This document shows, piece by piece, positions 1 to 63,979 of a DNA stretch of 64,000 bases. How positions within the stretch are numbered: position 1 is the first letter of the stretch; every line of letters begins with the position of its first letter. Under the pieces are notes generated by a model. It was not told the DNA's origin and did not search any database. It was given only the letters and a program-made list of their open reading frames with translations. Source of the DNA: a phage; the sequence record PZ386977.1; one strand, given 5' to 3'. A program made the translations under genes and the position numbers.

Positions 1-237
1 TAATATCCATTGCTTCGCCTGTTGCTACAAGTCCATCACCTGATTTTTCGACTAAACCTTTCTTAATCAATACACCAATGTTAGAGTTAACAACTGATGC
101 ATTGTATTCTGCTTCCAGAGCTTCACGGACATTGGCAGCAGTGGTGAAGTTGTTCTTAATGATATAAACCATTATTGCAGCAGTTTTTTCATTCAGAGCG
201 TTTTCAGAAGCTTTGATGATGTAAGTAACTTTAGACA
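1..237 (-). CDS. motA: MotA-like middle-transcription activator, N-terminal fragment (C-terminus beyond window edge)
   Basis: ATG near 235-237 with GGAG RBS and early promoter; N-terminus MSKVTYIIKASENALNEK...NSNIGVLIKKGLVEKSGDG matches my recollection of T4 MotA; adjacent to gene 52 as in T4. Confidence 0.55.
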
Positions 238-275
238 TTTTATTTCTCCAAATTAGTATTTGTTTTGATAGGTCT

Positions 276-304
276 ATAATATCATGTTTGAAGCAAAAGT
301 AAAC
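276..304 (-). promoter_or_regulatory. early sigma70-type promoter (GTTTAC-17-TATTAT) for motA
   Basis: minus strand reads GTTTAC, 17-nt spacer, TATTAT, then GGAG RBS and ATG. Confidence 0.55.
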
Positions 305-341: not shown

Positions 342-557
342 TTACAAACTCATTTCTTTAATAAGGCCAATAAGTTTTGCCTTTTTAGAACGAAGCTTTT
401 CTAAATGACGTCCATTTGAACCGCGAACCACTAAAGAATTGATTTCAACTTCTAAGAAATTTAATTCTTTAACAAGTGCTTTACGAGGAGCATTCATACC
501 AGGTTTAACTTTACCGAAACGAGTAGTTGTGTTTTGGGTTAATTTCATTTTAGACAT
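342..557 (-). CDS. hypothetical small basic protein (71 aa)
   Basis: ATG ORF with GGAG RBS; driven by a near-identical copy of the motA promoter/leader cassette. Confidence 0.5.
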   Translation of the reverse strand: MSKMKLTQNTTTRFGKVKPGMNAPRKALVKELNFLEVEINSLVVRGSNGRHLEKLRSKKAKLIGLIKEMSL

Positions 558-596
558 TTTATTTCTCCAATTTGGTTGTTTTGTTTTGATAGGTCT

Positions 597-625
597 ATAA
601 TATCATGTTTGAAGCACATGTAAAC
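597..625 (-). promoter_or_regulatory. early promoter (GTTTAC-17-TATTAT), duplicate of the motA cassette
   Basis: about 50 nt near-identical to 262-306 including leader and RBS. Confidence 0.55.
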
Positions 626-2412: not shown

Positions 2413-2859
2413 TTAGTAACTCTGCAGAATAAATTTGAAATTATCGGCCAGAAGACGGTTCATTTCAGTGAGTGTTTGATATTCTGATGTATGGTTGCGA
2501 GTGAACGCTAGAGCCAATTGTCCTTTACCATAACCAGTGGTCAGAGGTTTCATGTTCTTAGCTGAAACAAAGATTACATCGTATTCAATATTGTTAGTGC
2601 CCATGGTACGAGCTAGTTGTGAACGGCCTTGACGAATGTGAGAAAGAATTGCATCTAACCCTTGTTTAGAACGTTGACGTCCTACAAAGAATCGTGCTGC
2701 TACTTGACGCCAGTCAGATGAACCTTTAACGAAGAAGTAAAAACCTTCACGAGAACGAAACTCTTTAGAAACTTCAGAACCATATTCGCCATTACGAACT
2801 ACTGCAACAACTTCACCGCCAACTGCCAGAAGGTCTTTACGAGTTAAATATTTGGACAT
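2413..2859 (-). CDS. hypothetical protein (148 aa), possibly Ndd-like
   Basis: ATG ORF with GAGG RBS and upstream promoter/stem-loop cassette; Ndd assignment is by position and size only. Confidence 0.5.
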
Positions 2860-2896
2860 GCTAATTTCCTCAATTGATTAATGTTTTTGTAATCCA

Positions 2897-2931
2897 TGAG
2901 AGCATTATACTCTGCTCTCAAGAGTTTGTAC
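2897..2931 (-). promoter_or_regulatory. early promoter with embedded inverted repeat (PeSL-like cassette)
   Basis: minus strand TTGTAC-18-TATAAT; TGAGAGC/GCTCTCA inverted repeat spans the -10; near-identical copy at 48484-48518. Confidence 0.5.
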
Positions 2932-2935
2932 AATT

Positions 2936-3136
2936 TTATTCGGTTATATCAGAACGTTCAAAAAGCTCTTCAACAGTTAAACATTCGGTGTCATCCTCAA
3001 TAAAGAATCGGGTCCAACACGTTGGGGCAATGCAGTTATGAGTTTGTCCGGCGATAGAAGCTACACGAATAAGCTGCTGTCCATTATTCAGGACGAATTT
3101 TTCACCAATTTCAACATCTTTAAAAAGCTTAGCCAT
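2936..3136 (-). CDS. hypothetical protein (66 aa)
   Basis: ATG ORF with GAGG RBS and own upstream promoter cassette. Confidence 0.45.
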   Translation of the reverse strand: MAKLFKDVEIGEKFVLNNGQQLIRVASIAGQTHNCIAPTCWTRFFIEDDTECLTVEELFERSDITE

Positions 3137-3164
3137 TTTGTATTCCTCGTGTTTTGATAGGACT

Positions 3165-3194
3165 ACTATACCATAATCCTACCTTGTTGTAAAC
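3165..3194 (-). promoter_or_regulatory. early promoter (GTTTAC-18-TATAGT) with inverted repeat
   Basis: TAGGA/TCCTA arms flank the -10 on the minus strand. Confidence 0.5.
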
Positions 3195-3386: not shown

Positions 3387-3650
3387 TCATATCTCAACTT
3401 CCGCGAGTTCCATATATCCTTTGTTGATAACCTCTTTAAGGTCTTTAGAAAGAATAACACCAAAATGGTCGTTCATATGTCCGTTAACTAAACGAGTTAT
3501 TTCGGCTTCAGATGACATATAAGGCACGTCCGAGTCCCAATGAGATAGACTTAAATGAGTATAAATCATCCCTTCGTCATCTGCTGTGTTGTACATTGAA
3601 ACAAACTCACCGGTCACTTTATGTTTTGCGTAGAAAAATTTAAATTTCAT
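3387..3650 (-). CDS. hypothetical protein (87 aa)
   Basis: ATG ORF, RBS AGAGGA, promoter cassette upstream. Confidence 0.45.
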   Translation of the reverse strand: MKFKFFYAKHKVTGEFVSMYNTADDEGMIYTHLSLSHWDSDVPYMSSEAEITRLVNGHMNDHFGVILSKDLKEVINKGYMELAEVEI

Positions 3651-3669
3651 GATGTTATCCTCTTTTAGA

Positions 3670-3706
3670 TAGGACTACTATATCATAGTCCTACTTAGTT
3701 GTAAAC
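3670..3706 (-). promoter_or_regulatory. early promoter (GTTTAC-18-TATAGT) inside perfect 8-bp inverted repeat
   Basis: TAGGACTA ... TAGTCCTA arms at about 3670-3677 and 3686-3693; then RBS and ATG of ORF 3387..3650. Confidence 0.55.
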
Positions 3707-11646: not shown

Positions 11647-11648
11647 TA

Positions 11649-12053: not shown

Positions 12054-12280
12054 TAGTAAGTTTCCTTCCAATAAGTTGTACCGTTTTCAGTGATTTCACG
12101 GAAGATACCATAGATAGGCATTTCATCACCGAGTTTTTCGTAAACGTAAACCACTTCGGTGTAGCATAAAAATTCAGTCCAGTTTTTCTGTACAACAACT
12201 AAATCAGGATTAAACAGAACATCTTCAAACTCATCGATGTTTGAATCAGTAGTTACGTTTTTAATGATTTGACGTTTCAT
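12053..12280 (-). CDS. hypothetical protein (about 75 aa, start trimmed)
   Basis: first ATG of ORF 12053..12325 lies inside the promoter; downstream ATG (MKRQII) has AAGAGGAG RBS. Confidence 0.45.
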
Positions 12281-12303
12281 AATATTCTCCTCTTGTTTTG
12301 ATA

Positions 12304-12336
12304 GGTCTATAGTATCATAGACCATAGTTGTTGTAC
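12304..12336 (-). promoter_or_regulatory. early promoter with GGTCTAT/ATAGACC inverted repeat (PeSL-like)
   Basis: minus strand ATGTAC-18-TACTAT; 7-bp arms flank the -10. Confidence 0.5.
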
Positions 12337-12337
12337 A

Positions 12338-12862
12338 TCATTTTAGCAAAATAAAATCAACTTGTTCTGCCAATGAACGTCTAAACATTAATTGACAACT
12401 TCCGAGGATGAAATCAGGTGCTTCATAGACCGCGATGTAGTATCCTTTAGCTTTCAAGAGTTCAACATCCACCTGGTCATCAAACCATGCATAAACCGCG
12501 TCAACACTTTCAAATCCAAAATAGAACCCTTGAGCCCAATCTTCGTTCAATTCAAATGTGTGCTCAATTCTATAGTATCTTAAGATATTTTGTTCAAGGA
12601 GTTTGTCTTCATTTACTGTAGGACGATTAGGGACATTATAGTTGTCGCCGTGATGGTAGAAGTTACCTGAGAGTATTCCATGCTTATCAAGGAACTCCCA
12701 TGTTTCTTCAGAGTTGTCGGTGCCCGACCAACCGTAAGGTGAGCGAGGTTCTTTATTCCAGGAGATTTCCCAAATTCTGACGGCTTTACCATCTTCGATA
12801 GCAACTCCTGGTAAAGATTCACGTTGAGTACAAAAACTACGTTCTACGCGGTAAACTAACAT
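12338..12862 (-). CDS. hypothetical protein (174 aa)
   Basis: ATG ORF; its GAGGAGA RBS lies in one arm of a 12-bp inverted repeat. Confidence 0.5.
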   Translation of the reverse strand: MLVYRVERSFCTQRESLPGVAIEDGKAVRIWEISWNKEPRSPYGWSGTDNSEETWEFLDKHGILSGNFYHHGDNYNVPNRPTVNEDKLLEQNILRYYRIEHTFELNEDWAQGFYFGFESVDAVYAWFDDQVDVELLKAKGYYIAVYEAPDFILGSCQLMFRRSLAEQVDFILLK

Positions 12863-12866
12863 ATTA

Positions 12867-12917
12867 TTCTCCTCTAGTCGATAGATTTATAGTATCAAAA
12901 CTAGAGGAGAAGTAAAC
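12867..12917 (-). promoter_or_regulatory. early promoter (GTTTAC-17-TACTAT) embedded in perfect 12-bp inverted repeat that includes the RBS
   Basis: TTCTCCTCTAGT ... ACTAGAGGAGAA; the promoter-distal arm contains the Shine-Dalgarno of ORF 12338..12862. Confidence 0.6.
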
Positions 12918-12921
12918 AACT

Positions 12922-13341
12922 TTATGCAAAAGATGCTGGACAATATTTTTTGATTTGGAACTCAGGAACTACCATGAACTGCCCGGCAAAAACAATGTTA
13001 TAAAGCTTGACACCATCTTCTACCCATTGGTCACTAATAAATCCGGCGATTTGCTTAGTTTTCCATGGCGTTCCATCAGTTGCAGCAGCAATAGTAAATT
13101 CATGGTCTTTTACAACTAAAACAGACCTGCACAGTTTCCATTTGAACGCTTTTTCTTCTGGTTCAATGAATTGGCTTTTAACGTAACCAATGTTGCCATC
13201 AGCATCACGAACTTTAACTTCATTGCGACCAAAAACCGGATCACTTACATAAAGAACTTCAACCAACTTACCAGCGACTTTAGAGCGAGAAGCATCTGAT
13301 ACGTGTACATAATCACCAATAGAGAGATTTGCAATATTCAT
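12922..13341 (-). CDS. hypothetical protein, tandem paralog 1 (139 aa)
   Basis: shares SxASRSKxAGxLVEV N-terminal and DQWVEDGxKLYNIVFxGxFxVV C-terminal motifs with the next ORF. Confidence 0.55.
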   Translation of the reverse strand: MNIANLSIGDYVHVSDASRSKVAGKLVEVLYVSDPVFGRNEVKVRDADGNIGYVKSQFIEPEEKAFKWKLCRSVLVVKDHEFTIAAATDGTPWKTKQIAGFISDQWVEDGVKLYNIVFAGQFMVVPEFQIKKYCPASFA

Positions 13342-13350
13342 AATAATTCC

Positions 13351-13806
13351 TTAAGCTTTACGAGGAGACACATAGCGAGTGATTTCAGATTCTTTAACAA
13401 CTCGGAAGTCACCTAAGAATACGATATTGTATAACTTTTCACCATCTTCAACCCATTGGTCACTAATGAAGCCGCACATAATATCAGTTTTGTTTGGATA
13501 ACCGTATTCATCGATGAAGTCAAATTCTTTATCAGTCTGGAATTCAACACCTTTGCAAAGGGCCCATTTGAACTGTACATTGGGTTCAGTAGAAGCAAAA
13601 TGAGCGCTCACATGAGTTTCCAAGAATTTAGGACTTACGTAAGCGTACTGAGTTTCAGTTTTTCCAGAACTAGGAATGATTCGAACTTTAACTTCTTTAA
13701 CACGACCAGTACCATTAGTACGAAGTCCGACAACTTCAACCAGACGACCTGCAGCTTTAGAACGAGATGCAGACGATACACGCTTAATTTCACCAATAGT
13801 AATCAT
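13351..13806 (-). CDS. hypothetical protein, tandem paralog 2 (about 151 aa, start trimmed)
   Basis: full-length similarity to paralog 1; first in-frame ATG lies in the promoter; MITIGEIKRV start has GAGAGAGA RBS. Confidence 0.55.
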   Translation of the reverse strand: MITIGEIKRVSSASRSKAAGRLVEVVGLRTNGTGRVKEVKVRIIPSSGKTETQYAYVSPKFLETHVSAHFASTEPNVQFKWALCKGVEFQTDKEFDFIDEYGYPNKTDIMCGFISDQWVEDGEKLYNIVFLGDFRVVKESEITRYVSPRKA

Positions 13807-13836
13807 AATTTCTCTCTCTTTGTTTAAGTTGAATTC

Positions 13837-13864
13837 ATTATACTCCATCCGTCCTTGGATGTAC
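13837..13864 (-). promoter_or_regulatory. early promoter (GTACAT-16-TATAAT) with spacer hairpin
   Basis: variant of the TATACTCCAACCATCCTTGGTTGTAAAC cassette. Confidence 0.5.
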
Positions 13865-13868
13865 AACA

Positions 13869-14363
13869 TTAATTAAGGATATTAACCACAGCACTACGTG
13901 GAACTACACTAAAATCACCTGCATGAACAACGTTCAGAAGTTCAACACCGTCTTCAATCCATTGGTCAGTTACCCATCCATTTACTGGACCGGCGAATGG
14001 GCGTCGAATTGAAACATATTTACACAACAAATCAGTAGGCTCAATAGGCTTAATCAGAGTACCGTACATACAAGCGATGTCCATATCAAAGTGGAGACCA
14101 TCTTTAACAGGTGCTTCTTCAATCAACAGTTCAAAGTCGGTGCTTGGAAGGGCGGTAGTAGAAATTGTACCGTATGAATTTTTAATTTCTAAGAATAACC
14201 AAGGGCCTTCAACTTGTTTGATGAAGTTAACAATAGTGAAACTATTACCTTGAGTGGCACCTAAAATTTCACAAAACTTTTCATAAGCTCGCACTGAAGC
14301 ACCATACCAGTTGATTTGTTTTTCATCTTTCAGGATGTAAGTAGCCGTAGTATTGATATTCAT
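13869..14363 (-). CDS. hypothetical protein, paralog 3 (about 164 aa, start trimmed)
   Basis: C-terminal WVTDQWIEDGVELLNVVHAGDFSVV module shared with paralogs 1 and 2. Confidence 0.5.
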   Translation of the reverse strand: MNINTTATYILKDEKQINWYGASVRAYEKFCEILGATQGNSFTIVNFIKQVEGPWLFLEIKNSYGTISTTALPSTDFELLIEEAPVKDGLHFDMDIACMYGTLIKPIEPTDLLCKYVSIRRPFAGPVNGWVTDQWIEDGVELLNVVHAGDFSVVPRSAVVNILN

Positions 14364-14393
14364 AATGTTTTCCTGTTTGGTTAAAATAGAAAG

Positions 14394-14423
14394 ATTATAC
14401 TCCAACCATCCTTGGTTGTAAAC
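14394..14423 (-). promoter_or_regulatory. early promoter GTTTAC-18-TATAAT with CAACCA/TGGTTG spacer hairpin
   Basis: minus strand GTTTACAACCAAGGATGGTTGGAGTATAAT; same cassette at 57117-57146 and 58137-58166. Confidence 0.6.
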
Positions 14424-14427
14424 TGGT

Positions 14428-15105: not shown

Positions 15106-15114
15106 AATTTTCTC

Positions 15115-16738: not shown

Positions 16739-17485
16739 TTAACCTTTAATCAGTTGGAATAATGATGCGCTAAGTGGTAGGCCACGTTTCAATTTTAATT
16801 TACCAATGAAACCAATCTTTTCAAAACGTTGCAGACCTTGGATAACTTTATCATATGTATCGAAAAGCGATTCAGCGTCAGTTAATTTAGTTTTAGTTTT
16901 CCAGTCAGAGCCTTTAAGAAGAACGTTGAGTTTAGTAAGTTCATGGCCTTCTGCTTGATGTGAGCCATTAATGCGGGCTTTCAAAGCAACAATTCTAAGT
17001 TTAGATTCGTTAGATAAAGGTTGATTTTTCATCATGTTCGCCATATGCTTAACACGATTTTCACGTTTTGCTCGGATTTTTAAAATAGTATCATAAACCT
17101 TTTTGATTTGAGCCCATTTCTTCTCGTCGAGATTAAGTTTCTCTACTTTACGGGCAGAAGGATTAGCGATACGCCTTGCAATGGCATCACGTTTCTCAAT
17201 AAGTTCTTCTAATGTTAAATCAGAACGAGCCGTGTTATATTTTTTCTTAACTGGGATAACATTACCTTTAATGTAGCCGATATCGTTATTAAAACGTTCT
17301 AAGGATAATTTCTCACCTTCAACAGAGTTATTGAAAGATTCACCTGAGTAAGCGCAGACCTTTTGATCAAGAACGTTTTTAAGGTAATTAAAGTCTAAGT
17401 TAAAATCCTTAGAGCGTCTCTTCGCAGAAGCTCTGGTGTGGTCAAGACGACGATTGATTTTGTTAATTTTATTATTTGATAACAT
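16739..17485 (-). CDS. srd: Srd-like protein (putative sigma-factor mimic)
   Basis: 248 aa basic protein at the T4 srd position; size matches my recollection of T4 Srd. Confidence 0.5.
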   Translation of the reverse strand: MLSNNKINKINRRLDHTRASAKRRSKDFNLDFNYLKNVLDQKVCAYSGESFNNSVEGEKLSLERFNNDIGYIKGNVIPVKKKYNTARSDLTLEELIEKRDAIARRIANPSARKVEKLNLDEKKWAQIKKVYDTILKIRAKRENRVKHMANMMKNQPLSNESKLRIVALKARINGSHQAEGHELTKLNVLLKGSDWKTKTKLTDAESLFDTYDKVIQGLQRFEKIGFIGKLKLKRGLPLSASLFQLIKG

Positions 17486-17535
17486 AATATTTTCCTCTGT
17501 CTTACGGACGTTAAGGTCATTTAGCTGATAAGCTT

Positions 17536-17564
17536 ATAATATCATGCCCTCAGGTAGTGTACAC
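17536..17564 (-). promoter_or_regulatory. early promoter (GTGTAC-17-TATTAT) upstream of srd
   Basis: minus-strand hexamers with 17-nt spacer followed by RBS. Confidence 0.45.
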
Positions 17565-17638: not shown

Positions 17639-18247
17639 TCAGTAACCGACAATAGACAGATTCCAGATTGTATAACGTCCATCTTGAATAATAGAATCTA
17701 CACGCAGTGTAGTCCCTATAGGGAGCATAAATTCACATTCGTCAGATATAAGTCTAGCATTAGACCGTCTTGTCGCTTCAGGGAAAGCTCCATTGAACTC
17801 ACAAGATGGCGCAGCCAGAATCATGTTAAGCATATGTTCACGGAAGTTGAAAGCAAATGGTGCATCTTTGATGCAGAACATATTAAATGTTCCATAAAAA
17901 TTATATGAAGCGAAGTTACGTGCTACACCAAACACCGGACTAAAGCTCATTACTCTGTCAAATTTAATAATACTACCAACACCTTTATCATCGAGTGTGG
18001 CCATAGTTTTCTTAGAGATTCCACGATACATTGTCTCAGGAACTGAAGACGTCCAATTTCTACGAACGATTGAACTTAACTCCTGTTGAATACAGTCTGG
18101 CTTGTTTTCCATACACTGCCAAAGGATGCTTTGTTCATTATCGTTGAATTGACTATCAATTTCGTACTGCAATTCATCTTGATATTCAGGGCATTGAGCA
18201 CGACGAACCATTTCTTCAATTTCACATTCATTATACGGCATAAACAT
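17639..18247 (-). CDS. modA: ADP-ribosyltransferase ModA-like
   Basis: 202 aa; position after srd; paralogous to next ORF (shared ...YRG...T...F.F...AP..F motifs). Confidence 0.6.
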   Translation of the reverse strand: MFMPYNECEIEEMVRRAQCPEYQDELQYEIDSQFNDNEQSILWQCMENKPDCIQQELSSIVRRNWTSSVPETMYRGISKKTMATLDDKGVGSIIKFDRVMSFSPVFGVARNFASYNFYGTFNMFCIKDAPFAFNFREHMLNMILAAPSCEFNGAFPEATRRSNARLISDECEFMLPIGTTLRVDSIIQDGRYTIWNLSIVGY

Positions 18248-18275
18248 TTAGGTTTCTCCTGTGGTTGATAAAGGT

Positions 18276-18305
18276 ATAGTATCATCGTCGGTAGAGTTTG
18301 TACAC
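18276..18305 (-). promoter_or_regulatory. early promoter (GTGTAC-18-TACTAT)
   Basis: upstream of modA RBS AGGAGA. Confidence 0.45.
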
Positions 18306-18886
18306 TAAAAATTCAACATTTTTAAATGAATGATTTTGTATAGTCGAGATAAAGGGTCATATTCTAAGTCTTCAATTTCTACAATCTCAAATCTAGAGAT
18401 ACCTGAGACCATGTATTCTTGTTCAGATTCAATCATATCTAGGACGTCAACACGTTTTTCTTCCATAACATGCTTAGGGTTCTTTCCGGCGAGTACAATG
18501 TTAACCATGTTTTGGTAGTAATCGAAAATGAACGGAGCATTCCTGAGACTAAGAATAGTGTACGTTTGATATTCCCAACTCCCAGAGAACTGTCTGGCCG
18601 TACCAAAGTCTGTTGTAAACGATGTTACTCGCCCGGGAGACCAATGACATCCAACAGAAAGAAGGGAAAGACGTTCTACTTCTTCTGGAGTTACACCACG
18701 GTAGAGTTCTACTGGTACTGTAGAAGTCATATGCTTACGAACAAGATGGTCTAATTCATAGTGGAAATCTGGGTCTTCCTTAGAATCAGTGCAAGCCCAG
18801 AGAATGTTTTGTTCTTGTTTAGTGAATTTATCATCAATTAGTGCTGCGAGATATTCGCGTTCTTGAAGTTCAGATTGACATGTCAT
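18305..18886 (-). CDS. modB: ADP-ribosyltransferase ModB-like
   Basis: 193 aa; paralog of the preceding ORF; T4 modA-modB tandem arrangement. Confidence 0.6.
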   Translation of the reverse strand: MTCQSELQEREYLAALIDDKFTKQEQNILWACTDSKEDPDFHYELDHLVRKHMTSTVPVELYRGVTPEEVERLSLLSVGCHWSPGRVTSFTTDFGTARQFSGSWEYQTYTILSLRNAPFIFDYYQNMVNIVLAGKNPKHVMEEKRVDVLDMIESEQEYMVSGISRFEIVEIEDLEYDPLSRLYKIIHLKMLNF

Positions 18887-18913
18887 GATAGACCTCCATT
18901 TAAAGATAAGCCT

Positions 18914-18942
18914 ATCATAACACGAGAGGAGGGAATGTAAAC
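18914..18942 (-). promoter_or_regulatory. early promoter (GTTTAC-17-TATGAT)
   Basis: upstream of modB. Confidence 0.5.
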
Positions 18943-20160: not shown

Positions 20161-20353
20161 TAATTGTTCCTCGAACAAAACGAACACCGCCATCATCCCA
20201 ACGGATTTCAGCATTAAATTTGACGTCTTCACCATCCATCATGAATGAGTGTACGACTACATCATCATAATATCCAAGACCGTATTTCAACGAAACTTCT
20301 TGAGCAATCAAAGCACCTAATGTGTTATTAGGTTTAATCCAACGATTTAACAT
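20126..20353 (-). CDS. hypothetical protein (75 aa)
   Basis: ATG with AAGAGGAGA RBS downstream of an early promoter. Confidence 0.45.
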   Translation of the reverse strand: MLNRWIKPNNTLGALIAQEVSLKYGLGYYDDVVVHSFMMDGEDVKFNAEIRWDDGGVRFVRGTINAYDTEEVICC

Positions 20354-20381
20354 ATTGTTCTCCTCTTGAGTAAGTAAGAAT

Positions 20382-20411
20382 ATCTTAACACAGTTTTTAG
20401 TGGATGTAAAC
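20382..20411 (-). promoter_or_regulatory. early promoter (GTTTAC-18-TAAGAT)
   Basis: minus-strand hexamers upstream of ORF 20126..20353. Confidence 0.45.
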
Positions 20412-23948: not shown

Positions 23949-24234
23949 CTGTGATTTCGGTTACGATATCTTTGTTATCGAAATTAGGGTCACAATACAA
24001 AACATAGTTGTACTGCATGATACCGCCAGACTTAAGTTGTTCAACAACTTTATTAACCATATTAGGACGGTCTCGTTTAGTGATGTTCATGATATCAGAG
24101 AAGATTTGTTGTTCAACATCTTCTTGATTTGCAGTCATTGACCACTCACAGAGGTCTTTATCATAACCTGCTGTAACTGGAGCTGGTGCACATGATACTG
24201 CAAGTAAGATTGCTGCCAATGATAACTTTTTCAT
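23941..24234 (-). CDS. sp: periplasmic protein with signal peptide, Spackle-like
   Basis: 97 aa; N-terminal signal peptide MKKLSLAAILLAVSCAPAPVTAG; size equals T4 Sp; conserved Cys pair. Confidence 0.5.
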   Translation of the reverse strand: MKKLSLAAILLAVSCAPAPVTAGYDKDLCEWSMTANQEDVEQQIFSDIMNITKRDRPNMVNKVVEQLKSGGIMQYNYVLYCDPNFDNKDIVTEITGE

Positions 24235-24263
24235 TTTAACTCCTTAGTTGATTTGATAGGACT

Positions 24264-24293
24264 ACTATACCATAGTCCATCTATAATGTAAAC
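24264..24293 (-). promoter_or_regulatory. early promoter (GTTTAC-18-TATAGT) with TAGGACTA-type inverted repeat
   Basis: PeSL-like cassette upstream of sp. Confidence 0.5.
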
Positions 24294-24297
24294 AAGT

Positions 24298-24546
24298 TTA
24301 TTCTTTTTCGCGAATAATAATTACTTGTTGAGGCTGCTGAGCGGATTTCTTTTCGGCAACGATAGACCAAATTAAAGTTCCAATCCAACCAATCATCGTC
24401 CAGTTAAAGAGTAAAGATACAAAGAAGATTGCTGTTGTGCTTTTTGTGCCACGAATAAGTGCGATTACCCAAGGCAACATGTAAATGATGATTGAACCAA
24501 TACCTGCGATTAAAACTGCTACTGAACTAGCTACAAATAATTCCAT
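24298..24546 (-). CDS. small inner-membrane protein (82 aa)
   Basis: two predicted TM helices. Confidence 0.5.
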   Translation of the reverse strand: MELFVASSVAVLIAGIGSIIIYMLPWVIALIRGTKSTTAIFFVSLLFNWTMIGWIGTLIWSIVAEKKSAQQPQQVIIIREKE

Positions 24547-24574
24547 GTTAATTTCCTCTTGATTTGTTATGTTT

Positions 24575-24604
24575 ATAATATCTTGTTTTAACTTTGGTGT
24601 AAAC
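24575..24604 (-). promoter_or_regulatory. early promoter (GTTTAC-18-TATTAT)
   Basis: hexamers upstream of RBS AAGAGGA. Confidence 0.5.
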
Positions 24605-24607: not shown

Positions 24608-24976
24608 TTAATTAAATTTGTTTAAACGTTCAATACACTGGACGTAGTTATTAGCGATTTGTTTCTGGGAAGGCTCTTTACCAGTTGTTTCAACATAGCG
24701 AATGAATGCGATTTCAGTAGCCTGTAAGCAATGTTCTTTAACGCGTTGTTCTTTTGTCAATGCTACAGTATCAGAATCACGATAACGTTGAGCATGGGCA
24801 TCAGCTTGAATCATTCGATTACCTACAGTAACTGGGTCTTCCACTTCAACTTTAGGTTGGTTGTACTGTTTAACATTCGGGTTATAAATCAATTGGCCAA
24901 CATTATTAGGGATAAAGCCATGGGCACCACATCCGGTTAATCCAAATACCATTGCTAAAGCGATTAATTTTTTCAT
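24608..24976 (-). CDS. putative lipoprotein (122 aa)
   Basis: signal peptide with lipobox LTGC (MKKLIALAMVFGLTGC). Confidence 0.55.
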   Translation of the reverse strand: MKKLIALAMVFGLTGCGAHGFIPNNVGQLIYNPNVKQYNQPKVEVEDPVTVGNRMIQADAHAQRYRDSDTVALTKEQRVKEHCLQATEIAFIRYVETTGKEPSQKQIANNYVQCIERLNKFN

Positions 24977-25004
24977 TTCAATTTCCTCTGTAGTTGATAG
25001 AAAG

Positions 25005-25034
25005 ATAGTAACACATTATGTAGTGCTTGTAAAC
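25005..25034 (-). promoter_or_regulatory. early promoter (GTTTAC-18-TACTAT)
   Basis: upstream of the lipoprotein gene. Confidence 0.5.
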
Positions 25035-25442: not shown

Positions 25443-25756
25443 ATTTCCTCGCAAAATGCCCATTCAGCGTGATAAACTGTAGCACCTTTAGTATCATTCA
25501 TTTGAACTACGTCTACCGGAGAAATTACTCGATAGAGACGTGGTTCACCTCCATAAGAGCGTGCTGCTCGTCCTGCATAAATCTTTGCTAAACCGATATC
25601 TTCAGTAAAGAATACACGATTCAAGTTTTTCTTACGCCCAGTTTCAGACAGAACTCCTGTTTCCTCAGGAGGACAAAGCATGTTTTCGATGTTAGCTGAA
25701 CTACTTGAACCGTGATAAAAAATCTTAAATTCTGCTTTACAATCGATGGTTTTCAT
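25439..25756 (-). CDS. hypothetical protein (105 aa)
   Basis: ATG with GGAGAA RBS that lies in one arm of a 14-bp inverted repeat. Confidence 0.5.
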   Translation of the reverse strand: MKTIDCKAEFKIFYHGSSSSANIENMLCPPEETGVLSETGRKKNLNRVFFTEDIGLAKIYAGRAARSYGGEPRLYRVISPVDVVQMNDTKGATVYHAEWAFCEEI

Positions 25757-25760
25757 TTTG

Positions 25761-25811
25761 TTCTCCAGTAGTTGATAGGTCTATAATAACACAACTACTG
25801 GAGAAGTAAAC
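25761..25811 (-). promoter_or_regulatory. early promoter (GTTTAC-17-TATTAT) inside perfect 14-bp inverted repeat that includes the RBS
   Basis: TTCTCCAGTAGTTG ... CAACTACTGGAGAA; classic arrangement for RBS sequestration in read-through transcripts. Confidence 0.6.
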
Positions 25812-26186
25812 TTAAAAACGTAATTTAGATATATCTGCGTTGATTTCGTTTTGGTTTGCGTCGTATGCAATTAAACGAACCGCTTTAGATGGGTCATTCA
25901 ATGCATAGAAATGATGGAACATTGCTCGAACGATATCGCCATTTACGAGTTCTACCTGGATAGGAGAACCTTTTTCGAGTTGGAAATGTTCATAAGCTTT
26001 GATGGTTCGTAGATAATCAAGTTTTTGATTTCCAGCTCCAACTATTTGTACGATACGTTTGCCCATGTTTTCCATACGAGATACAATAGTTTTAGGAGCA
26101 AGAATAACGTAGGTTGCCAGCGGAGAAACTACTTCAACAGTTGTGTTTTCGGTGATTGCAGTAAAAATTGCTTGAGACATATTCAT
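25812..26186 (-). CDS. hypothetical protein (124 aa)
   Basis: ATG ORF with AGAGGAAA RBS. Confidence 0.5.
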   Translation of the reverse strand: MNMSQAIFTAITENTTVEVVSPLATYVILAPKTIVSRMENMGKRIVQIVGAGNQKLDYLRTIKAYEHFQLEKGSPIQVELVNGDIVRAMFHHFYALNDPSKAVRLIAYDANQNEINADISKLRF

Positions 26187-26215
26187 AATGTTTTCCTCTT
26201 GGTTGGTGTAAGTTC

Positions 26216-26245
26216 ATCATATCATGCTTAGAGGAAGATGTAAAC
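26216..26245 (-). promoter_or_regulatory. early promoter (GTTTAC-18-TATGAT)
   Basis: upstream of ORF 25812..26186. Confidence 0.5.
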
Positions 26246-47017: not shown

Positions 47018-47558
47018 ATAAAAAATCCAAACTAGGCGAATCGCTAACAACTTCCTTCTTTTCAGCCCCAGGAGCTTTATAAGCGGATTCTTCATAATGC
47101 GTCATTTTATCGTAGATGTCTTGAATAAACGTTTCATCTACCAACGCTACCATATCATCGTCATGACTGTCGTAGACGTTATGAACGAAGTAACTATATT
47201 TCTTTGCAACTTCCTTACGTTCTTTTTTGATACGTTGGACAAAAGCATTAAAACAAGCTCGAGTTATGTATGCATGTGGGTTATTGTACTTAGTTTCGTC
47301 GAAATTATGAAGTCCCTTAATAGAGGCTTCAATCCCATCTGCAATCATCTCCTGCTTCCAAGACTGGGTATATCCTGAAAAGTTGAAACGTTTGGACAGG
47401 CCTTCGGCGATAAGCATAATTGCTAAACCGATGGTATCATTCTGACGAATAATTTTGTTTGGGTCTTTATTATTTAAGAGCTCCTTTTTCCACTCGATTA
47501 TAGCGGCGAGAAGCTCTTTATTATTCACATAGTTATTTTTAGGTTTTTGTTCAGTCAT
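47001..47558 (-). CDS. 55: late-transcription sigma factor
   Basis: 185 aa; N-terminus [24 protein letters not shown]; size equals T4 gp55. Confidence 0.85.
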
Positions 47559-47579
47559 AAGTACCTCTTAGCTCAATTC

Positions 47580-47614
47580 ATAGGTCTATTATATCATAAT
47601 ATTTAGAGACCTAT
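47580..47614 (-). promoter_or_regulatory. inverted-repeat element with TATAAT upstream of gene 55
   Basis: ATAGGTCT ... AGACCTAT 8-bp arms around an AT-rich loop; no clear -35. Confidence 0.4.
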
Positions 47615-47630
47615 CTTAAAGCACGAGATA

Positions 47631-48124: not shown

Positions 48125-48453
48125 TTTACCGCCTTAACAATTTTCAGGTCAACGAATTTTTTCTTACGTTGATTTTTCATACGACGGATAGTCTTTTCAG
48201 AGATTTCATGTTTCTGATAAGCTTTAGATTCAACACCAAATGCAGCAACGTCAAATTCAGAAAGAATATATTGTACTAGAATTTCACGAATAGAATTACG
48301 TCCAATTTTCTGGTCGTGTTTTTGCATGATTTCATAAAGACGGAATTCCCACGCGTCAAGGACTTGAGGAGTAACAATATTGCCGGATTCCAGAAGAGCA
48401 ACAACTTTATCGAAAGCGAAAGAATTAACTACATTTTTGATTTTAGTAGACAT
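48121..48453 (-). CDS. hypothetical protein (about 110 aa, start trimmed)
   Basis: internal ATG (MSTKIKNV) with GAGG RBS downstream of promoter cassette. Confidence 0.45.
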   Translation of the reverse strand: MSTKIKNVVNSFAFDKVVALLESGNIVTPQVLDAWEFRLYEIMQKHDQKIGRNSIREILVQYILSEFDVAAFGVESKAYQKHEISEKTIRRMKNQRKKKFVDLKIVKAVK

Positions 48454-48483
48454 ATTATTTTCCTCTGTTATTTTATTATCCAA

Positions 48484-48518
48484 TGAGAGCATTATACTCT
48501 GCTCTCAAGAGTTTGTGC
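48484..48518 (-). promoter_or_regulatory. promoter/stem-loop cassette, near-identical copy of 2897-2931
   Basis: shared sequence TGAGAGCATTATACTCTGCTCTCAAGAGTTTGT(A/G)C. Confidence 0.5.
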
Positions 48519-48519
48519 A

Positions 48520-48759
48520 TTATTCCGTGATAAGATAATGTAAATAGTTTGCTTGACGAACACTGATATCAACACCCATATCAAAGATACCTTTATAGAA
48601 CGGGTATTTGTTTTCAGTAGAATCTAGACTAAAAGCCTTTCCACCACAACTAACGGTAATAGCATCAGTTAAAGTGTCATATACAAACTTAATAGTTGAG
48701 CCATTCACTACGACTTCAAGACGTTTTTTCGATGTAATAACGTCTAATTCTTGTTCCAT
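48520..48759 (-). CDS. hypothetical protein (79 aa)
   Basis: ATG ORF. Confidence 0.45.
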   Translation of the reverse strand: MEQELDVITSKKRLEVVVNGSTIKFVYDTLTDAITVSCGGKAFSLDSTENKYPFYKGIFDMGVDISVRQANYLHYLITE

Positions 48760-48822
48760 GATATTTTCCTCATTTTAAGACGATAGGAAGATAATAACAC
48801 GTCTTCCTATCGTTGTACATTA

Positions 48823-49711: not shown

Positions 49712-49983
49712 GGCTTAATTTCCTTCGCAATTGAACAGAAGATACCACGGTCACAAATCATTTCACCAATTTCTGGATATTTGATCGAACGGTACCAAAC
49801 ATCCAGGCTTGAAACTCTGGTTATCTGTACTGCATTACCATTGACAGAATAGTACTGGTCAACCTTAATTTCTTTATCTTCAATTGTCATTTTATTTTCC
49901 TCTATAGCAGTTTGTTTAATCTTAACACATCTATCGAGGATGTAAACTGTTTTATGAAAATATTTTTGATTTGAGAGGGGCAC
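49708..49983 (-). CDS. hypothetical protein (91 aa)
   Basis: ATG ORF. Confidence 0.45.
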   Translation of the reverse strand: MPLSNQKYFHKTVYILDRCVKIKQTAIEENKMTIEDKEIKVDQYYSVNGNAVQITRVSSLDVWYRSIKYPEIGEMICDRGIFCSIAKEIKP

Positions 49984-54196: not shown

Positions 54197-54394
54197 TCAA
54201 TATTCTCTATAAAAGTTACGATGAGAACGTTTAGCTTTGCGAAGCTGACGTTTAGTAGGACGAACCGTAAAAGGTTTACCGGAGAAAAAATTCGGTTCAG
54301 TTTTAATTAACAAATACCATCCTTTTTTGCCACTTTTGAATGAACGATACCTCAATTCAACTTGCATAATAATCTCTTCCCATTTCCATATCAA
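54197..54394 (-). CDS. hypothetical small protein with C-terminal VRPTKRQ motif
   Basis: paralog of ORF 25037..25249 (shared F.VRPTKRQ.R..KR). Confidence 0.4.
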   Translation of the reverse strand: MIWKWEEIIMQVELRYRSFKSGKKGWYLLIKTEPNFFSGKPFTVRPTKRQLRKAKRSHRNFYREY

Positions 54395-54495
54395 TTAATT
54401 CATTTATTGAAGGTTCATCATAACACGTTTCTTCGTCGTTGTAAACTGTTTCGACGTCTGGCTCGACAGTTTCCCATCGAGCCGAATACCATGGC

Positions 54496-55833: not shown

Positions 55834-56138
55834 TATAATGTTCTCTCAAATTTGTGGAAGCATTTACGACATTTCAATTTCAAGTTATCAGTGGTCCAGT
55901 TAACCAGTTGGACTTGGATAGTTCCACATTCCGGGCATGGATGTTTTGCTGCCGATTTGGCAGCATTTTCACGTCGTTCAACCATTTTCATTATTTCGTT
56001 CCATGCCGGAGGAACGAACTCTTCTTCACCGTGGATTTTATCTCGCTGAACAAATTCAATCTTTGAACTATCGTCAATAAACTTAACCAAGCCATGATTA
56101 GTGCTCATATCAATATCCTCTAAAAGACGTAGTTTCAT
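55833..56138 (-). CDS. zinc-ribbon protein (101 aa)
   Basis: C-terminal CPECG...CRKC. Confidence 0.5.
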   Translation of the reverse strand: MKLRLLEDIDMSTNHGLVKFIDDSSKIEFVQRDKIHGEEEFVPPAWNEIMKMVERRENAAKSAAKHPCPECGTIQVQLVNWTTDNLKLKCRKCFHKFERTL

Positions 56139-57088
56139 TATAACACCTCAATGGCATTTCGTAAACCGTCCGCTTTCGCATTCAGAGCTTTTAACGATTT
56201 AGTTTGTTCTTTAATCTGGGCTTCGACTTCTTTCAGACGAGATTTGAGGTACTCACGTTCTTCGCTCAAGTTGTCAACTTTTTCTACTTTAGGTTCTTTA
56301 ATAGTCTTAAGTTTATACTCGTTAGGGTTCTTCAACTTAATTCGGGTACGAGAACTATATAACATTGAACCGTTATCTTCGGATTCGTCGAACGTTTCAA
56401 CAACATCCATAGTCTCTAACAATGTAATAAGTTTATAAGACAACGAACGAATAGTTTTGTTGTGCTTATTAATTTCTTCGGCTTTCATGGTACCGAGATT
56501 ACGTGAGTAGTAATAAGGAACCTGGATATCAATTGATAATGATGCGTTACCATTACCAGTTGGTTTGAATACTGCAGTAACCCAATCTTTAACATGAACT
56601 TTATTTGTACGGCCATCACCGCCAGTGAATAATTTACGAGAATGTTTAAAAAGCATATTCACTTGTTTATTGAATTCACAAGCAAATTTATCAGCAAATT
56701 TAGTTTCAGGAATGGTAGATAACCAATCAGCCAAATGAGTCTTTTTAACATCATTAACAATAGTGAATTCAACCAAATCGGTTTTAGATGTCACAGATTT
56801 AATAAAGCTCGGCTTCATAAAGTTTTTAATGTTATCGCGAGCTACAGTAGAAGATAATAAACGAGAACGTTTGAACCATTGAAGCAGGGTCCCTAATGAA
56901 TGAGAATACGCATTCTGAGTATCTTTACAGATATGATTTTCTTGGCCTGTGTATGTACCAAAATCGCGAAGAATACCACTTACTACATCTCGGTGCGGAA
57001 CATCAAATCCTAGTGCACCAGAAGCGCGCTGAGCATGAACGTTAGCGATAAGACCGGCAAAGTATTCAATGTAATGTGAACGTGTCAT
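56138..57088 (-). CDS. hypothetical protein with C-terminal coiled coil (316 aa), tandem gene A
   Basis: ATG ORF with own early promoter; C-terminal heptad-like segment. Confidence 0.55.
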   Translation of the reverse strand: MTRSHYIEYFAGLIANVHAQRASGALGFDVPHRDVVSGILRDFGTYTGQENHICKDTQNAYSHSLGTLLQWFKRSRLLSSTVARDNIKNFMKPSFIKSVTSKTDLVEFTIVNDVKKTHLADWLSTIPETKFADKFACEFNKQVNMLFKHSRKLFTGGDGRTNKVHVKDWVTAVFKPTGNGNASLSIDIQVPYYYSRNLGTMKAEEINKHNKTIRSLSYKLITLLETMDVVETFDESEDNGSMLYSSRTRIKLKNPNEYKLKTIKEPKVEKVDNLSEEREYLKSRLKEVEAQIKEQTKSLKALNAKADGLRNAIEVL

Positions 57089-57116
57089 AATATTTTCCTC
57101 TCGTTAAGATAGATTC

Positions 57117-57146
57117 ATTATACTCCGACCATCCTTGGTTGTAAAC
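57117..57146 (-). promoter_or_regulatory. early promoter GTTTAC-18-TATAAT (CCAACCATCCTTGGTTG cassette)
   Basis: same cassette as 14394-14423. Confidence 0.6.
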
Positions 57147-57150: not shown

Positions 57151-58110
57151 TTATGATTTTAATGCATTCATTGCGTTAAAAAGTTTAGAATACTGCAACT
57201 GGAGATTCGTTACAACACTTTGAGCATCACGAAGCTTAGCTTGTGCTTTGTCAAGTTCAACAGACAGTTGGTCCATAGTGACCTTGATTTGATTGTAATG
57301 GTAATCTTCGACCGGAAGAAGGTCATTAGAAACATTTAGTTTTACTGCAGACAGTTTGCACACATTTGGCGAACCTTTAAACATTGATTTACCCGAAGTA
57401 GAATAAGCACTTAGGACTTCGGCCTGTTCAATTGGGGTCCCAGTAAGCGATGCTTCAAACAATGCATTTTCCTTTTTAAGATTTTGATAGTATTCAGAGT
57501 CTTTGTGCCACCATGGCGCAGGAACCTTTTTACCAATAGATACACGAGCCTGGATAGCGATATGGCCCTTATTCTTGATAGGGTCGACAATATTAAGCTC
57601 ACGAGAATAAATTGCTTTAATCTGGTGGATATTATCACCTAAAACTTCCAACGCTTGGTGGAATACACGAGCAACGTTATCATTCTTAGGTTTATACGTA
57701 AGAGTGAACTCATTCTCACTGATAACCATGATTTCCAACTTATCGTAAGTATATTTCAAATGTTTCATGTTAATTGCTTGAGGACGAATACGAGAAGCAA
57801 TGGCCATCAGATTGTTAAGGTTATTCCGGAACTGCTTAGCGAAATATTGTCCTTCACCGCCAATACAAAAATTACGAAGTTTCTGTTTGGCTAGTAAACG
57901 GCTGAACTCACCATTTTTAATGAACTCTTTAACGGGTGTGTTAGTAACGCATTCAAATTGAGTAAACGTACGAGAATTAATCCCATAATACGAACAGATT
58001 TCCTCAATCTCTTCAGGAGTCTTTACAGGCATACGGATAGGATTAGGTTCTGGGGTATATGCGTTCGAGGTAAATTCTTTGATAAGTTCTCTACGTGTAA
58101 TAAAAGCCAT
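57151..58110 (-). CDS. hypothetical protein with C-terminal coiled coil (319 aa), tandem gene B
   Basis: ATG ORF with own early promoter. Confidence 0.55.
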   Translation of the reverse strand: MAFITRRELIKEFTSNAYTPEPNPIRMPVKTPEEIEEICSYYGINSRTFTQFECVTNTPVKEFIKNGEFSRLLAKQKLRNFCIGGEGQYFAKQFRNNLNNLMAIASRIRPQAINMKHLKYTYDKLEIMVISENEFTLTYKPKNDNVARVFHQALEVLGDNIHQIKAIYSRELNIVDPIKNKGHIAIQARVSIGKKVPAPWWHKDSEYYQNLKKENALFEASLTGTPIEQAEVLSAYSTSGKSMFKGSPNVCKLSAVKLNVSNDLLPVEDYHYNQIKVTMDQLSVELDKAQAKLRDAQSVVTNLQLQYSKLFNAMNALKS

Positions 58111-58136
58111 TTTATATTCCTCATGTTGAAAAATTT

Positions 58137-58166
58137 ATTATACTCCAACCATCCTTGGTTGTACAT
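58137..58166 (-). promoter_or_regulatory. early promoter (ATGTAC-18-TATAAT), same cassette family
   Basis: TTATACTCCAACCATCCTTGGTTGTACAT. Confidence 0.55.
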
Positions 58167-59223: not shown

Positions 59224-59751
59224 TTATGCGTGAACCGTCTTTAAACGTTCTTCAAATTTCCGAAGAGTACTAATACGTTCTGCTTTCTGTTTTGTATAGT
59301 TTGCAATACGTTCTGAAGTGAGAGCGTATCGTTCGTTTACTGTTTCTTTCATGAAGTCAGGGATTTCACGAGAAGCTTTAATTTCATCAAACTTATCGAG
59401 TACTGCCTGGTCTTCAGCGATTAAATTTTCGTACATCTCGATATCTTTCTTGATAAACTCGATATCTTCCTGGGTTACTTTGGATAAACGAGATGCTTTA
59501 TCCTTTTTGTACTGCTCGTTAGTTTCACGAGACCAGAATAATGTACGTTTTTTGTTAGTGTTTTTGTAGACTTCCACAATTCCAACTGAATCGATGATAA
59601 CAATCCAATTCCAGTGAGATTTGAAAATCTGACCTCCGTCCACGGTAATCTCGTTACCATAAGCAACATCGTTAAAGAACTTGCTTTGTGCTTCAGATTT
59701 AAATTTACCGTCGTTATAATTTACCAGGTTGAAAATATCTTTAGCGTTCAT
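59224..59751 (-). CDS. hypothetical protein (175 aa)
   Basis: ATG ORF with GGAGG RBS inside promoter/stem-loop cassette. Confidence 0.5.
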   Translation of the reverse strand: MNAKDIFNLVNYNDGKFKSEAQSKFFNDVAYGNEITVDGGQIFKSHWNWIVIIDSVGIVEVYKNTNKKRTLFWSRETNEQYKKDKASRLSKVTQEDIEFIKKDIEMYENLIAEDQAVLDKFDEIKASREIPDFMKETVNERYALTSERIANYTKQKAERISTLRKFEERLKTVHA

Positions 59752-59778
59752 GTTTTACCTCCAGTAGTTGATAGGTCT

Positions 59779-59807
59779 ATAATAACATAACCATAGACCT
59801 TGTAAAC
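59779..59807 (-). promoter_or_regulatory. early promoter (GTTTAC-17-TATTAT) with AGGTCTAT/ATAGACCT inverted repeat
   Basis: PeSL-like cassette. Confidence 0.55.
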
Positions 59808-61216: not shown

Positions 61217-61254
61217 TTTATTCTCCAATTTACTCATTTCGTTTCGATAGGTCT

Positions 61255-61283
61255 ATAATAACATATCCTAAAAGCATGTACAC
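61255..61283 (-). promoter_or_regulatory. early promoter (GTGTAC-17-TATTAT)
   Basis: upstream of the ATPase gene. Confidence 0.45.
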
Positions 61284-63814: not shown

Positions 63815-63949
63815 TTTACCATACTCGTTTCAATAAGATTCACTATGCCGTTTACCATGTTATAAGTAAACATCGGATAATTGTATTGTACTACAACATA
63901 AGCGATAAGCAAAAGTTTCATTTTGTTCTCCATTCGTTTTGGTAGGACT

Positions 63950-63979
63950 ACTATAACATAATCCTACCAAGATGTAAAC
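63950..63979 (-). promoter_or_regulatory. early promoter (GTTTAC-18-TATAGT) with GGTAGGA/TCCTACC inverted repeat
   Basis: PeSL-like cassette at window end. Confidence 0.5.

Follow-up and report, generated by a model that had tools for sequence, protein, structure and literature searches.

The closest described relatives of the elements discussed here are the promoter/stem-loop cassettes (PeSLs) defined in RB49 and phi1 by Arbiol 2010 (PMC2839356) and in T4/PST and KVP40/nt-1 by Comeau 2014 (PMC4122927). In each, A/T-rich DNA upstream is joined to a promoter of the sigma-70 type, whose -35 and -10 elements have a stem-loop between or over them, and to a Shine-Dalgarno sequence (SD) followed by an ATG. 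Many copies stand before small early genes, and crossovers between neighbouring copies delete or insert genes. Arbiol 2010 recognised five positional sub-classes of stem-loop and mapped the crossovers of mini-circles at the SD region, between the -10 and the ATG; Comeau 2014 gave the consensus TTTACW-N17-TAYWAT for T4/PST. A second precedent is the work of Nolan, Petrov, Bertrand, Krisch and Karam 2006 (PMC1524935), who predicted 58 early promoters in RB69. We analysed a stretch of 64,000 nucleotides (nt) of phage DNA from record PZ386977.1 (hereafter the window), in which a preliminary description had placed a dense array of PeSL-like cassettes at 12867-14423. We consider it probable that these repeats are T4-type early promoters fused to a leader with SD and ATG, that about half of them carry a hairpin able to form on read-through RNA only, and that crossovers between cassettes occasionally take place.

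Judging from its sequence, the window is a T4-type, RB69-like Mosigvirus phage. Over 12000-15500, its identity to Enterobacteria phage ATK47, whose genus is Mosigvirus (the RB69 group), is 97.9%, and hundreds of T4-like phages also match there. The G+C content is about 37%, and the minus strand holds about 102 of the 109 open reading frame (ORF) calls. Over the whole window, we counted 22 minus-strand and two plus-strand matches to the strict pattern GTTTAC-N16-19-TAnnnT. For the relaxed pattern T[GT]TAC-N17-18-TAnnnT, the counts were 31 and 10, respectively, against 6.7 +/- 2.4 in Markov shuffles. The cassettes are thus real and far beyond chance. Yet just three of their -10 hexamers (14394-14399, 13837-13842 and 12889-12894) fall inside 12867-14423, and the rest of the copies, reported earlier as at least 20, are spread across the whole window. 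We label cassettes by the position at their -10 hexamer, for example 14399 for 14394-14399 and 12894 for 12889-12894. A first position-weight matrix, seeded on exact GTTTAC, missed the copies at 18281, 2909, 48496 and 13842, whose -35 contains TGTAC or TTGTAC, and we therefore used the relaxed pattern followed by inspection. The resulting curated set comprises 31 cassettes, with three of poor -35 (29287-29292, 22597-22602 and 47588-47593). The first of these three was not counted as an early cassette, because it fits a MotA-type middle promoter better: the sequence at 29287-29317, upstream of the uvsX-side gene, reads TGCTGTA-N12-TATAAT and matches the MotA-box middle-promoter consensus.

An unbiased search for repeats led to the same elements, since the largest dispersed families that it returned (D1-D4 and D8) are all cassettes. 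A generic scan for TTGACA/TATAAT gave no enrichment (52 found, 52 expected from shuffles); as this count equals the chance expectation, the generic scan is uninformative and the phage-specific consensus alone discriminates. A scan of the whole window with Rfam gave no family at its gathering score.

The cassettes match the T4 early-promoter consensus (UP, -35, TGn and -10) summarised by Hinton 2010 (PMC2988021), in the pattern of -35 and -10, in the presence of TGn and of A/T-rich upstream DNA, and in being oriented 5' of an ORF with an SD. The extended -10 (TGn) is present in 23 of 30 cassettes, compared with a TG dinucleotide frequency of 7%, and the seventh nucleotide after the -10 is an A in 28 of 30, with C-C-T ahead of it. 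An SD and an ATG follow 25-50 nt downstream of the -10 in 27 of the 31. The 25 nt upstream of the cassettes are 70% A+T, a modest difference from the 63% of the window. With the RB69 early promoters they share GTTTAC, TGn, TAnnnT, an A-rich UP-like region and C before the start (C residues at -3 to -1 in RB69), as well as the position 5' of early-gene orthologues and novel ORFs. The coordinates coincide too: in the alignment of the window with RB69, the promoters Pe:6863, 7443, 8387 and 8947 correspond to 12314, 12894, 13842 and 14399, and Pe:12088, 12829 and 13466 to 17541, 18281 and 18919. The RB69 study differs from ours in that it describes neither hairpins (the term 'stem-loop' is absent) nor promoter recombination. 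The GenBank and RefSeq records of T4 held no promoter features, and so gave no cross-check against mapped T4 early promoters. With its A/T-rich upstream region, GTTTAC, spacer of 17-18 nt, TGn, TAnnnT, C-rich discriminator and start A at 7 nt, each cassette would be a strong sigma-70 promoter, and the gene behind it would be transcribed by the host polymerase right after infection.

Some cassettes form sub-families with long strings in common. The preliminary description reported one identical string at 14394, 57117 and 58137. There is an exact 29-mer at 14395-14423, but the other two copies are near-identical only (57118-57146 with one mismatch, 58138-58166 with two) and each reported coordinate was one position out. 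There is also a fourth copy, more diverged, at 13837-13866. When the copies of this 14399 sub-family are aligned, similarity ends at the borders of the cassette, which spans about 30-50 nt.

The same description held inverted repeats to be frequent, which is true of about half of the cassettes, as about a dozen lack a hairpin. Folded from the -35 to the ATG and compared with dinucleotide shuffles, the cassettes have a mean z score of -1.32 (t-test p 0.0009), with z<-2 in 9 of 31 and z<-1 in 16 of 31. Three geometries can be distinguished. In class A, the commonest, the hairpin straddles the -10, with its 5' arm in the spacer and its 3' arm in the discriminator (63955, 59784, 48796, 48496, 47593, 24269, 12314, 3682, 3170 and 2909). 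In class B, it is the SD or the AUG that the 3' arm covers, the 5' arm being in the spacer or else in the -10 and discriminator; the five members are at 12889-12917, 25783-25811, 26216-26245, 49919-49947 and 18914-18942, and in silico masking of the SD is strongest at 12894 and 25788 and weaker at 49924, 26221 and 18919. In class C, the hairpin is wholly within the spacer (CAACCA-AGGA-TGGTTG), as at 14399, 58142, 57122 and 13842. The stem-loop in or next to the promoter that defines PeSLs is therefore found within the spacer, straddling the -10 or reaching from the spacer to the SD, and is missing from the remaining cassettes.

The arm sequences vary between cassettes while their complementarity is kept. 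The spacer of a cassette pairs with its own downstream region at -9.29 kcal/mol, compared with -6.97 +/- 0.46 kcal/mol when it is matched with the downstream regions of other cassettes (0 of 20000 permutations). Such figures indicate that the hairpins are under selection. Two kinds of fold were set aside: an alternative structure of cassette 14399, pairing spacer and -10 with the leader, is not conserved in orthologues, and the spacer-internal hairpin was preferred; the minimum-free-energy helices of cassettes with z>0 were taken to be spurious, as orthologues disrupt them freely. The predicted start, the A placed 7 nt after the -10 by the consensus (28 of 30), falls between the arms of the hairpin. 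The 5' arm being upstream of the cassette's own start, RNA begun at the cassette cannot fold in this way and only read-through RNA can. This would apply to about half of the cassettes.

The best example is the cassette at 12860..12917 (-), before the 174-residue homologue of T4 motB.2. It has its -35 (GTTTAC) at 12912-12917, its -10 (TACTAT) at 12889-12894, its predicted start at 12882 and its ATG at 12862. In its hairpin of 12 base pairs (bp), with a free energy (dG) of -20.2 kcal/mol and a z score of about -5, TTCTCCTCTAGT in the spacer (12900-12911) forms the 5' arm and pairs with ACTAGAGGAGAA (12867-12878), the 3' arm, which covers the SD. Within Mosigvirus, the helix has undergone a change from A-U to G-C, for which EP02SG provides a G.U intermediate. 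The T4 promoter between dexA and motB.2 has the same spacer-to-SD hairpin in another sequence (TTCCTCGGT.AGTTGTGGT / ACACCATAGCT.ACTGAGGA). A single-protein search for motB.2 loci gave near-identical contigs only, and a query made of a three-sequence alignment was needed to reach 17 viral contigs with motB.2 relatives of 30-99% identity. All of their upstream cassettes mask the SD, by at least four unrelated sequence solutions. RNAalifold found no shared structure in the mixed alignment of these cassettes, because the lineages use different registers, and we then counted pairs with an explicit structure in the subset sharing the register of 12894. In this subset, 94.8% of the cells are paired, both partners have changed in two pairs, and covariation scores 0.211, compared with 0.055 in shuffles (0 of 500) and about 0 in slid controls.

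Other cassettes behave similarly. The helix of 3170 shows a G-C to A-U compensation in phiEC1, and the hairpin of 13842 differs from that of 14399 by one compensatory change, A-T to T-A. Upstream of cef, a strong hairpin straddles the -10 in every lineage, with lineage-specific arms. In the Tequatrovirus ES21, the class is kept at 63955 (with different arms), 12894 and 47593 (with a G-C to A-T compensation), and it has switched at 59784 (from A to B, spacer-to-SD) and 13842 (from C to A). These changes bear on the idea that a dimeric DNA-binding protein uses the inverted repeats as operators, for instance to shut off early promoters. In its favour, many repeats have their centre at or close to the -10, the place for a repressor to act, and the way in which T4 shuts its early transcription off has not been explained in full (PMC2988021). 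Still, the arms differ widely between cassettes and between orthologues, with complementarity restored by compensatory changes, the repeats vary in position and length, and the tolerance of G.U pairs indicates that it is the RNA that folds. We hold the operator explanation to be highly improbable.

The role originally proposed for PeSLs is another: the hairpins would be terminators or attenuators of the upstream polymerase, each cassette being a terminator-promoter pair. Comeau 2014 termed PeSLs composite promoter-terminator motifs, and one stem-loop of an RB49 PeSL cut lacZ expression as much as rrnB T1 (PMC2839356). In the window, true terminators with a UUCG loop do closely precede a few cassettes: one is at 20426-20447, and others stand upstream of 602 and 61260. 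The promoter-embedded hairpins are of a different kind, since the tails behind them are A-rich, without a T-run in any case, and a terminator scan of the gene strand over 11000-27000 flagged no embedded hairpin. By these features, the stem-loops of the window do not look like terminators or attenuators. Moreover, several 3' arms are the SD itself, for which a terminator gives no reason, and the reporter result could also be explained by blocked translation followed by polarity. Termination by the embedded hairpins thus seems improbable to us, if far less so than the operators. A canonical terminator lies just upstream of only 3-5 cassettes, and the three with strong upstream terminators (20387, 602 and 61260) have no embedded hairpin; on these three cases, terminator and embedded hairpin may be alternative devices. 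UUCG-tetraloop stems followed by T-runs were seen at 20426-20447, 11028-11043 and about 61300-61330, the first two being bidirectional.

A better model for class B may be found in the T4 genes e, soc, 49 and I-TevI, where a late promoter lies inside the DNA for the 5' strand of a helix that masks the SD (PMC3014915). There, transcripts from upstream hold both strands of the helix over the SD or AUG, and the internal promoter gives a translatable proximal RNA. The window cassettes have the same arrangement, with the SD or AUG paired in silico and RNA synthesis predicted to begin downstream of the 5' strand. They differ in the internal promoter, which in T4 is late (TATAAATA) and delays translation to late infection, whereas here it is of the early sigma-70 type, and the predicted effect is reversed: translation would be possible only while early promoters fire. 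The review cited above lists late-promoter cases only, and our literature search, with older T4 work beyond its reach, found no description of SD masking with an early promoter.

Our explanation of the hairpins runs as follows. Most cassettes have no terminator in front of them, and read-through RNA is therefore expected, as in T4 (PMC2988021). At class B genes, the SD would be free on the RNA started at the cassette and paired on the RNA that enters from upstream, and the latter would be poorly translated. Left untranslated, it is probably prone to Rho-dependent polarity or decay; Rho polarity on untranslated RNA has been discussed for T4 (PMC2988021). The action of Rho on read-through RNA could mimic a terminator without a U-tract, and the synthesis of class B products would thereby be confined to the period in which their own early promoter fires. 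In its full form, this makes the embedded hairpins non-terminator devices that sort transcripts by origin: genes of the motB.2 type would be made only from their own early promoter in the first minutes of infection, the remaining RNA being exposed to Rho or decay, as an early mirror image of e, soc and 49, and this would be a reason for the units to be self-contained and transplantable. We offer this last extension tentatively, with our doubts slightly outweighing our confidence. Stronger is the broader reading of the repeats as early promoters with leaders, partial hairpins and occasional crossover. Behind it stand the cassette architecture, the bias in strand and position, the excess of folding, the co-variation of the arms and the two cassette-to-cassette indels described below, all of which were observed; that the promoters are active, where their RNA starts and how the hairpins affect translation are predictions.

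Several results weigh against this explanation. Class A, in spite of being the commonest, leaves the SD free, and its role is not accounted for by SD masking. About 12-15 of the 31 cassettes have no significant hairpin. Nor is the hairpin retained in every genus: in ES21, for example, the sp and 55.6-like cassettes have lost it (losses at 24269 and 49924). To these must be added the lacZ result with RB49 and, as regards recombination, the lack of preference for cassette-bearing junctions.

To follow gene content, we aligned all or most of RB69, phiEC1, EP02SG, BEU50 and TH12, and part of AV115 and ATK47, to the window. These seven Mosigvirus genomes revealed 20 distinct events of insertion or deletion (indels) or replacement, with 33 breakpoints. 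Two indels run from cassette to cassette. AV115 lacks about 13869-14363 (the indel can also be placed at 13863-14357), and with it a MotB-like gene (gene A); at its junction stands a hybrid cassette, to which 14399 contributes the upstream half as far as the -10 and 13842 the leader, with an alignment overlap of 64 nt. EP02SG lacks about 25812-26186 (also placed at 25766-26182), with an overlap of 15 nt, and the join is the SD region common to cassettes 26221 and 25788. Joins between the -10 and the ATG are like those of the published mini-circles, and recombination between copies has here produced indels of the enclosed genes, as in PeSLs. In another three events, a cassette marks one of the ends (25057, 47635 and 61338). 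With 30-60 nt of near-identical DNA at the starts of genes, neighbouring cassettes would be able to cross over, and phage recombination would in this way occasionally cause the loss or gain of whole promoter-plus-gene units.

It could be argued that the cassettes are alike through independent selection as strong promoters, that they are not special substrates of recombination, and that indels simply fall at gene junctions. Breakpoints at junctions show no excess at those that bear a cassette (7 of 27, when 26% of junctions do, p 0.57, for 20 events in seven genomes), the indel at 54869-55152 uses a different junction repeat of 34 nt, and several differences are insertions of about 600-1000 nt resembling mobile genes. 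Against this argument, the AV115 join is a precise hybrid of two cassettes and the EP02SG join lies within a shared SD region; copies of a sub-family have 26-29 nt in common, including unconstrained spacer, before unrelated genes 43 kb apart; and cassette DNA holds 5 of the 33 breakpoints, compared with 4.6% under a uniform null (p 0.016). We regard selection alone as rather unlikely, the least so of the alternatives considered. The preliminary proposal that the repeats give homology for gene shuffling is thus supported by two indels, but, in this sample, without a preference for cassettes over other gene junctions. Its label of PeSL-like is appropriate, given the A/T-rich region, sigma-70-type promoter, stem-loop, SD and ATG of Arbiol 2010 and Comeau 2014, and the cassette-bounded differences that it expected among relatives were found in AV115 and EP02SG. 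Its further view of each accessory gene as an autonomous early unit seems reasonable from the sequence, with some support from hairpins that would block the translation of read-through RNA. Overall, what it observed was partly confirmed, and its interpretation is supported.

Relative to published PeSLs, the window also shows differences. Mosigvirus was outside the analyses of Arbiol 2010 and Comeau 2014. The stems of the window are not GGGG/CCCC or AGNA/TCNT, and none resembles an intrinsic terminator. Stems in PST and T4 were drawn just upstream of the promoter, whereas most of those seen here have a 5' arm in the spacer that pairs with a 3' arm falling on the discriminator, leader or SD. Finally, in this sample, cassettes are not favoured over other junctions as breakpoints.

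Most differences in gene content involve other short junction repeats and probable mobile genes. The indel of 282 nt at 54869-55152 removes a gene of 98 residues (54871-55167) flanked by a direct repeat of 34 nt (CTGCGAGAAnATTTTAAATGA), which is a junction of stop/start coupling and not a promoter; the gene is missing exactly there in RB69, phiEC1 and EP02SG. Several differences are insertions of 600-1075 nt. A segment of 806 nt specific to the window (42033-42840) is replaced by 67 nt in RB69, phiEC1, EP02SG and TH12, and carries a plus-strand ORF of 238 residues (42116-42832), opposite to nearly all genes, with only a weak zinc-ribbon match in Pfam; it is probably a free-standing mobile gene resembling those of homing endonucleases. 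BEU50 has five insertions or replacements of 600-1075 nt opposite window positions 9170, 33365, 44516-44756, 51450 and 62626. They are likely to be mobile endonuclease genes and make up much of that genome's difference in gene content. Within modB (18339-18849), EP02SG lacks 509 nt, an internal deletion in an ADP-ribosyltransferase gene and not a whole-gene indel. Late-promoter motifs (TATAAATA) occur at about 20715-20725, before soc, and at about 61615-61625, before a gene of 88 residues (61336-61602) that is missing in TH12; beside the soc motif, RB69, phiEC1 and EP02SG have insertions of 191-386 nt.

The span 12867-14423 itself sits between dexA (14428-15105) and cef, and contains three tandem genes of the MotB family (Pfam PF17613), all on the minus strand. 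Gene A (13869..14363, 164 residues, E 9e-9), the one missing in AV115, has a sub-family cassette on each flank (14399 and 13842). Gene B (13351..13806, 151 residues, E 4e-38) is the motB orthologue by the RB69 annotation. Gene C (12922..13341, 139 residues, E 6e-24) starts 9 nt after gene B and has no cassette of its own. The motB.2 homologue (12338..12862 (-), 174 residues) follows behind its SD-masking cassette. The number of MotB-like genes differs between phages, with two in AV115, three in the window and four in ESh31. The cassette-led motB.2 unit also changes place, being first after dexA in T4 and ESh31, and last, beside cef, in RB69 and the window. ATK47 annotates the middle MotB-like gene with 165 residues from an ATG at 13848. 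This ATG belongs to promoter DNA (-35 and spacer) and is upstream of position 13830, where RNA is predicted to start. The RB69-type start at 13806, with an SD and 151 residues, fits the cassette better. The counterpart of gene A in RB69 (8376-8872) is annotated as two ORFs, motB.1 of 132 residues and an ORF of 29 residues, and the window has a single intact ORF of 164 residues (13869-14363) in its place. The split in RB69 is probably a frameshift or a sequencing difference in that phage.

Three cassettes of this neighbourhood, besides the one before motB.2, deserve description, and like all those that follow they are on the minus strand (-). That before gene A (14361..14423; RB69 Pe:8947; reference of repeat family D3) has its -35 (GTTTAC) at 14418-14423 and its -10 (TATAAT) at 14394-14399, a predicted start A at 14387, and an SD followed by the ATG at 14363; its spacer hairpin pairs CAACCA (14413-14418) with TGGTTG (14403-14408) around an AGGA loop. 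The diverged copy of the same sub-family before gene B (13804..13866; Pe:8387) has its -35 (TTGTAC) at 13861-13866, its -10 (TATAAT) at 13837-13842, its predicted start at 13830 and its ATG at 13806, and pairs CATCC (13857-13861) with GGATG (13846-13850). Before cef (12278..12338; Pe:6863), the -10 is at 12309-12314 and is straddled by a hairpin GGTCTAT/ATAGACC.

Among the other class B cassettes, the one at 25754..25811 has a spacer-to-SD hairpin of 14 bp (TTCTCCAGTAGTTG / CAACTACTGGAGAA; dG -21.7 kcal/mol, z -6.6) and is the downstream partner in the EP02SG deletion, the upstream partner being at 26184..26245, with a spacer-to-SD pairing of 7 bp (TTCCTCT / AGAGGAA). At 49888..49947, spacer and SD pair with one mismatch (TCCTCGATAG / CTATAGAGGA; z -2.4). 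Before modB (18884..18942), it is the -10 and discriminator (ATGATAGGC) that pair with the SD and AUG region (GGTCTATCAT; z -2.6). Of class C, two copies of the CAACCAAGGATGGTTG sub-family precede nrdC.5 (58108..58166) and nrdC.3 (57086..57146), the latter with one stem mismatch peculiar to this phage.

Class A includes the cassettes at 63919..63979 (hairpin straddling the -10; dG -20.1, z -5.1), 59749..59807 (before nrdC.8), 48757..48820 (ACGATAGGAAG / CTTCCTATCGT; dG -18.4, z -4.0), 24232..24293 (before sp), 3648..3706 (TAGGACTA / TAGTCCTA) and 3134..3194 (reference of repeat family D1; z -3.0). A class A hairpin is also present at 47556..47616 (ATAGGTCT / AGACCTAT), where there is a -10 and a poor -35. 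Two paralogous cassettes of repeat family D8, 48451..48520 and 2857..2933, have the arms GAGAGC / GCTCTC, and the spacer frame of the second is the same as in the T4 motB promoter, which has GGGACC / GGTCCC.

The remaining cassettes, most of them with no hairpin or no significant one, are found in varied contexts. That at 61214..61283 has a UUCG-loop stem (GGGGACCTTCGGGTCCC, about 61300-61330) just upstream, and that at 20351..20411 a canonical terminator (20426-20447) 14 nt upstream; both lack an embedded hairpin. The cassette at 555..625, with no significant hairpin, has a terminator-like stem upstream and a paralogue at 236..304. There is no significant hairpin before srd (17483..17564; -35 GTGTAC; Pe:12088), at 54365..54446, or at 56106..56166, where the cassette overlaps the 3' end of the upstream gene, and there is none before imm (24544..24604) and imm.1 (24974..25034). 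The A/T-rich upstream edge of the imm.1 cassette is one breakpoint of a deletion of 203 nt in three relatives. The cassette before modA (18245..18305; Pe:12829) also has GTGTAC as its -35.

Overall, the promoter array is a known feature and ordinary for T4-type phages, while the masking of an SD by a hairpin embedded in an early promoter is a possible new variant, as far as sequence can tell. The AV115 and EP02SG indels provide, at base resolution, two cases from RB69-like phages in which a whole gene was gained or lost through crossover of one cassette with its neighbour, with the caution that, in this sample, cassettes are no more recombinogenic than other gene junctions. The geometry of the hairpins suggests that the translation of each gene is tied to its own promoter. 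If so, dozens of dense and overlapping early transcription units would be kept functionally separate, and modules made of a cassette and its gene could move without disturbing their neighbours.

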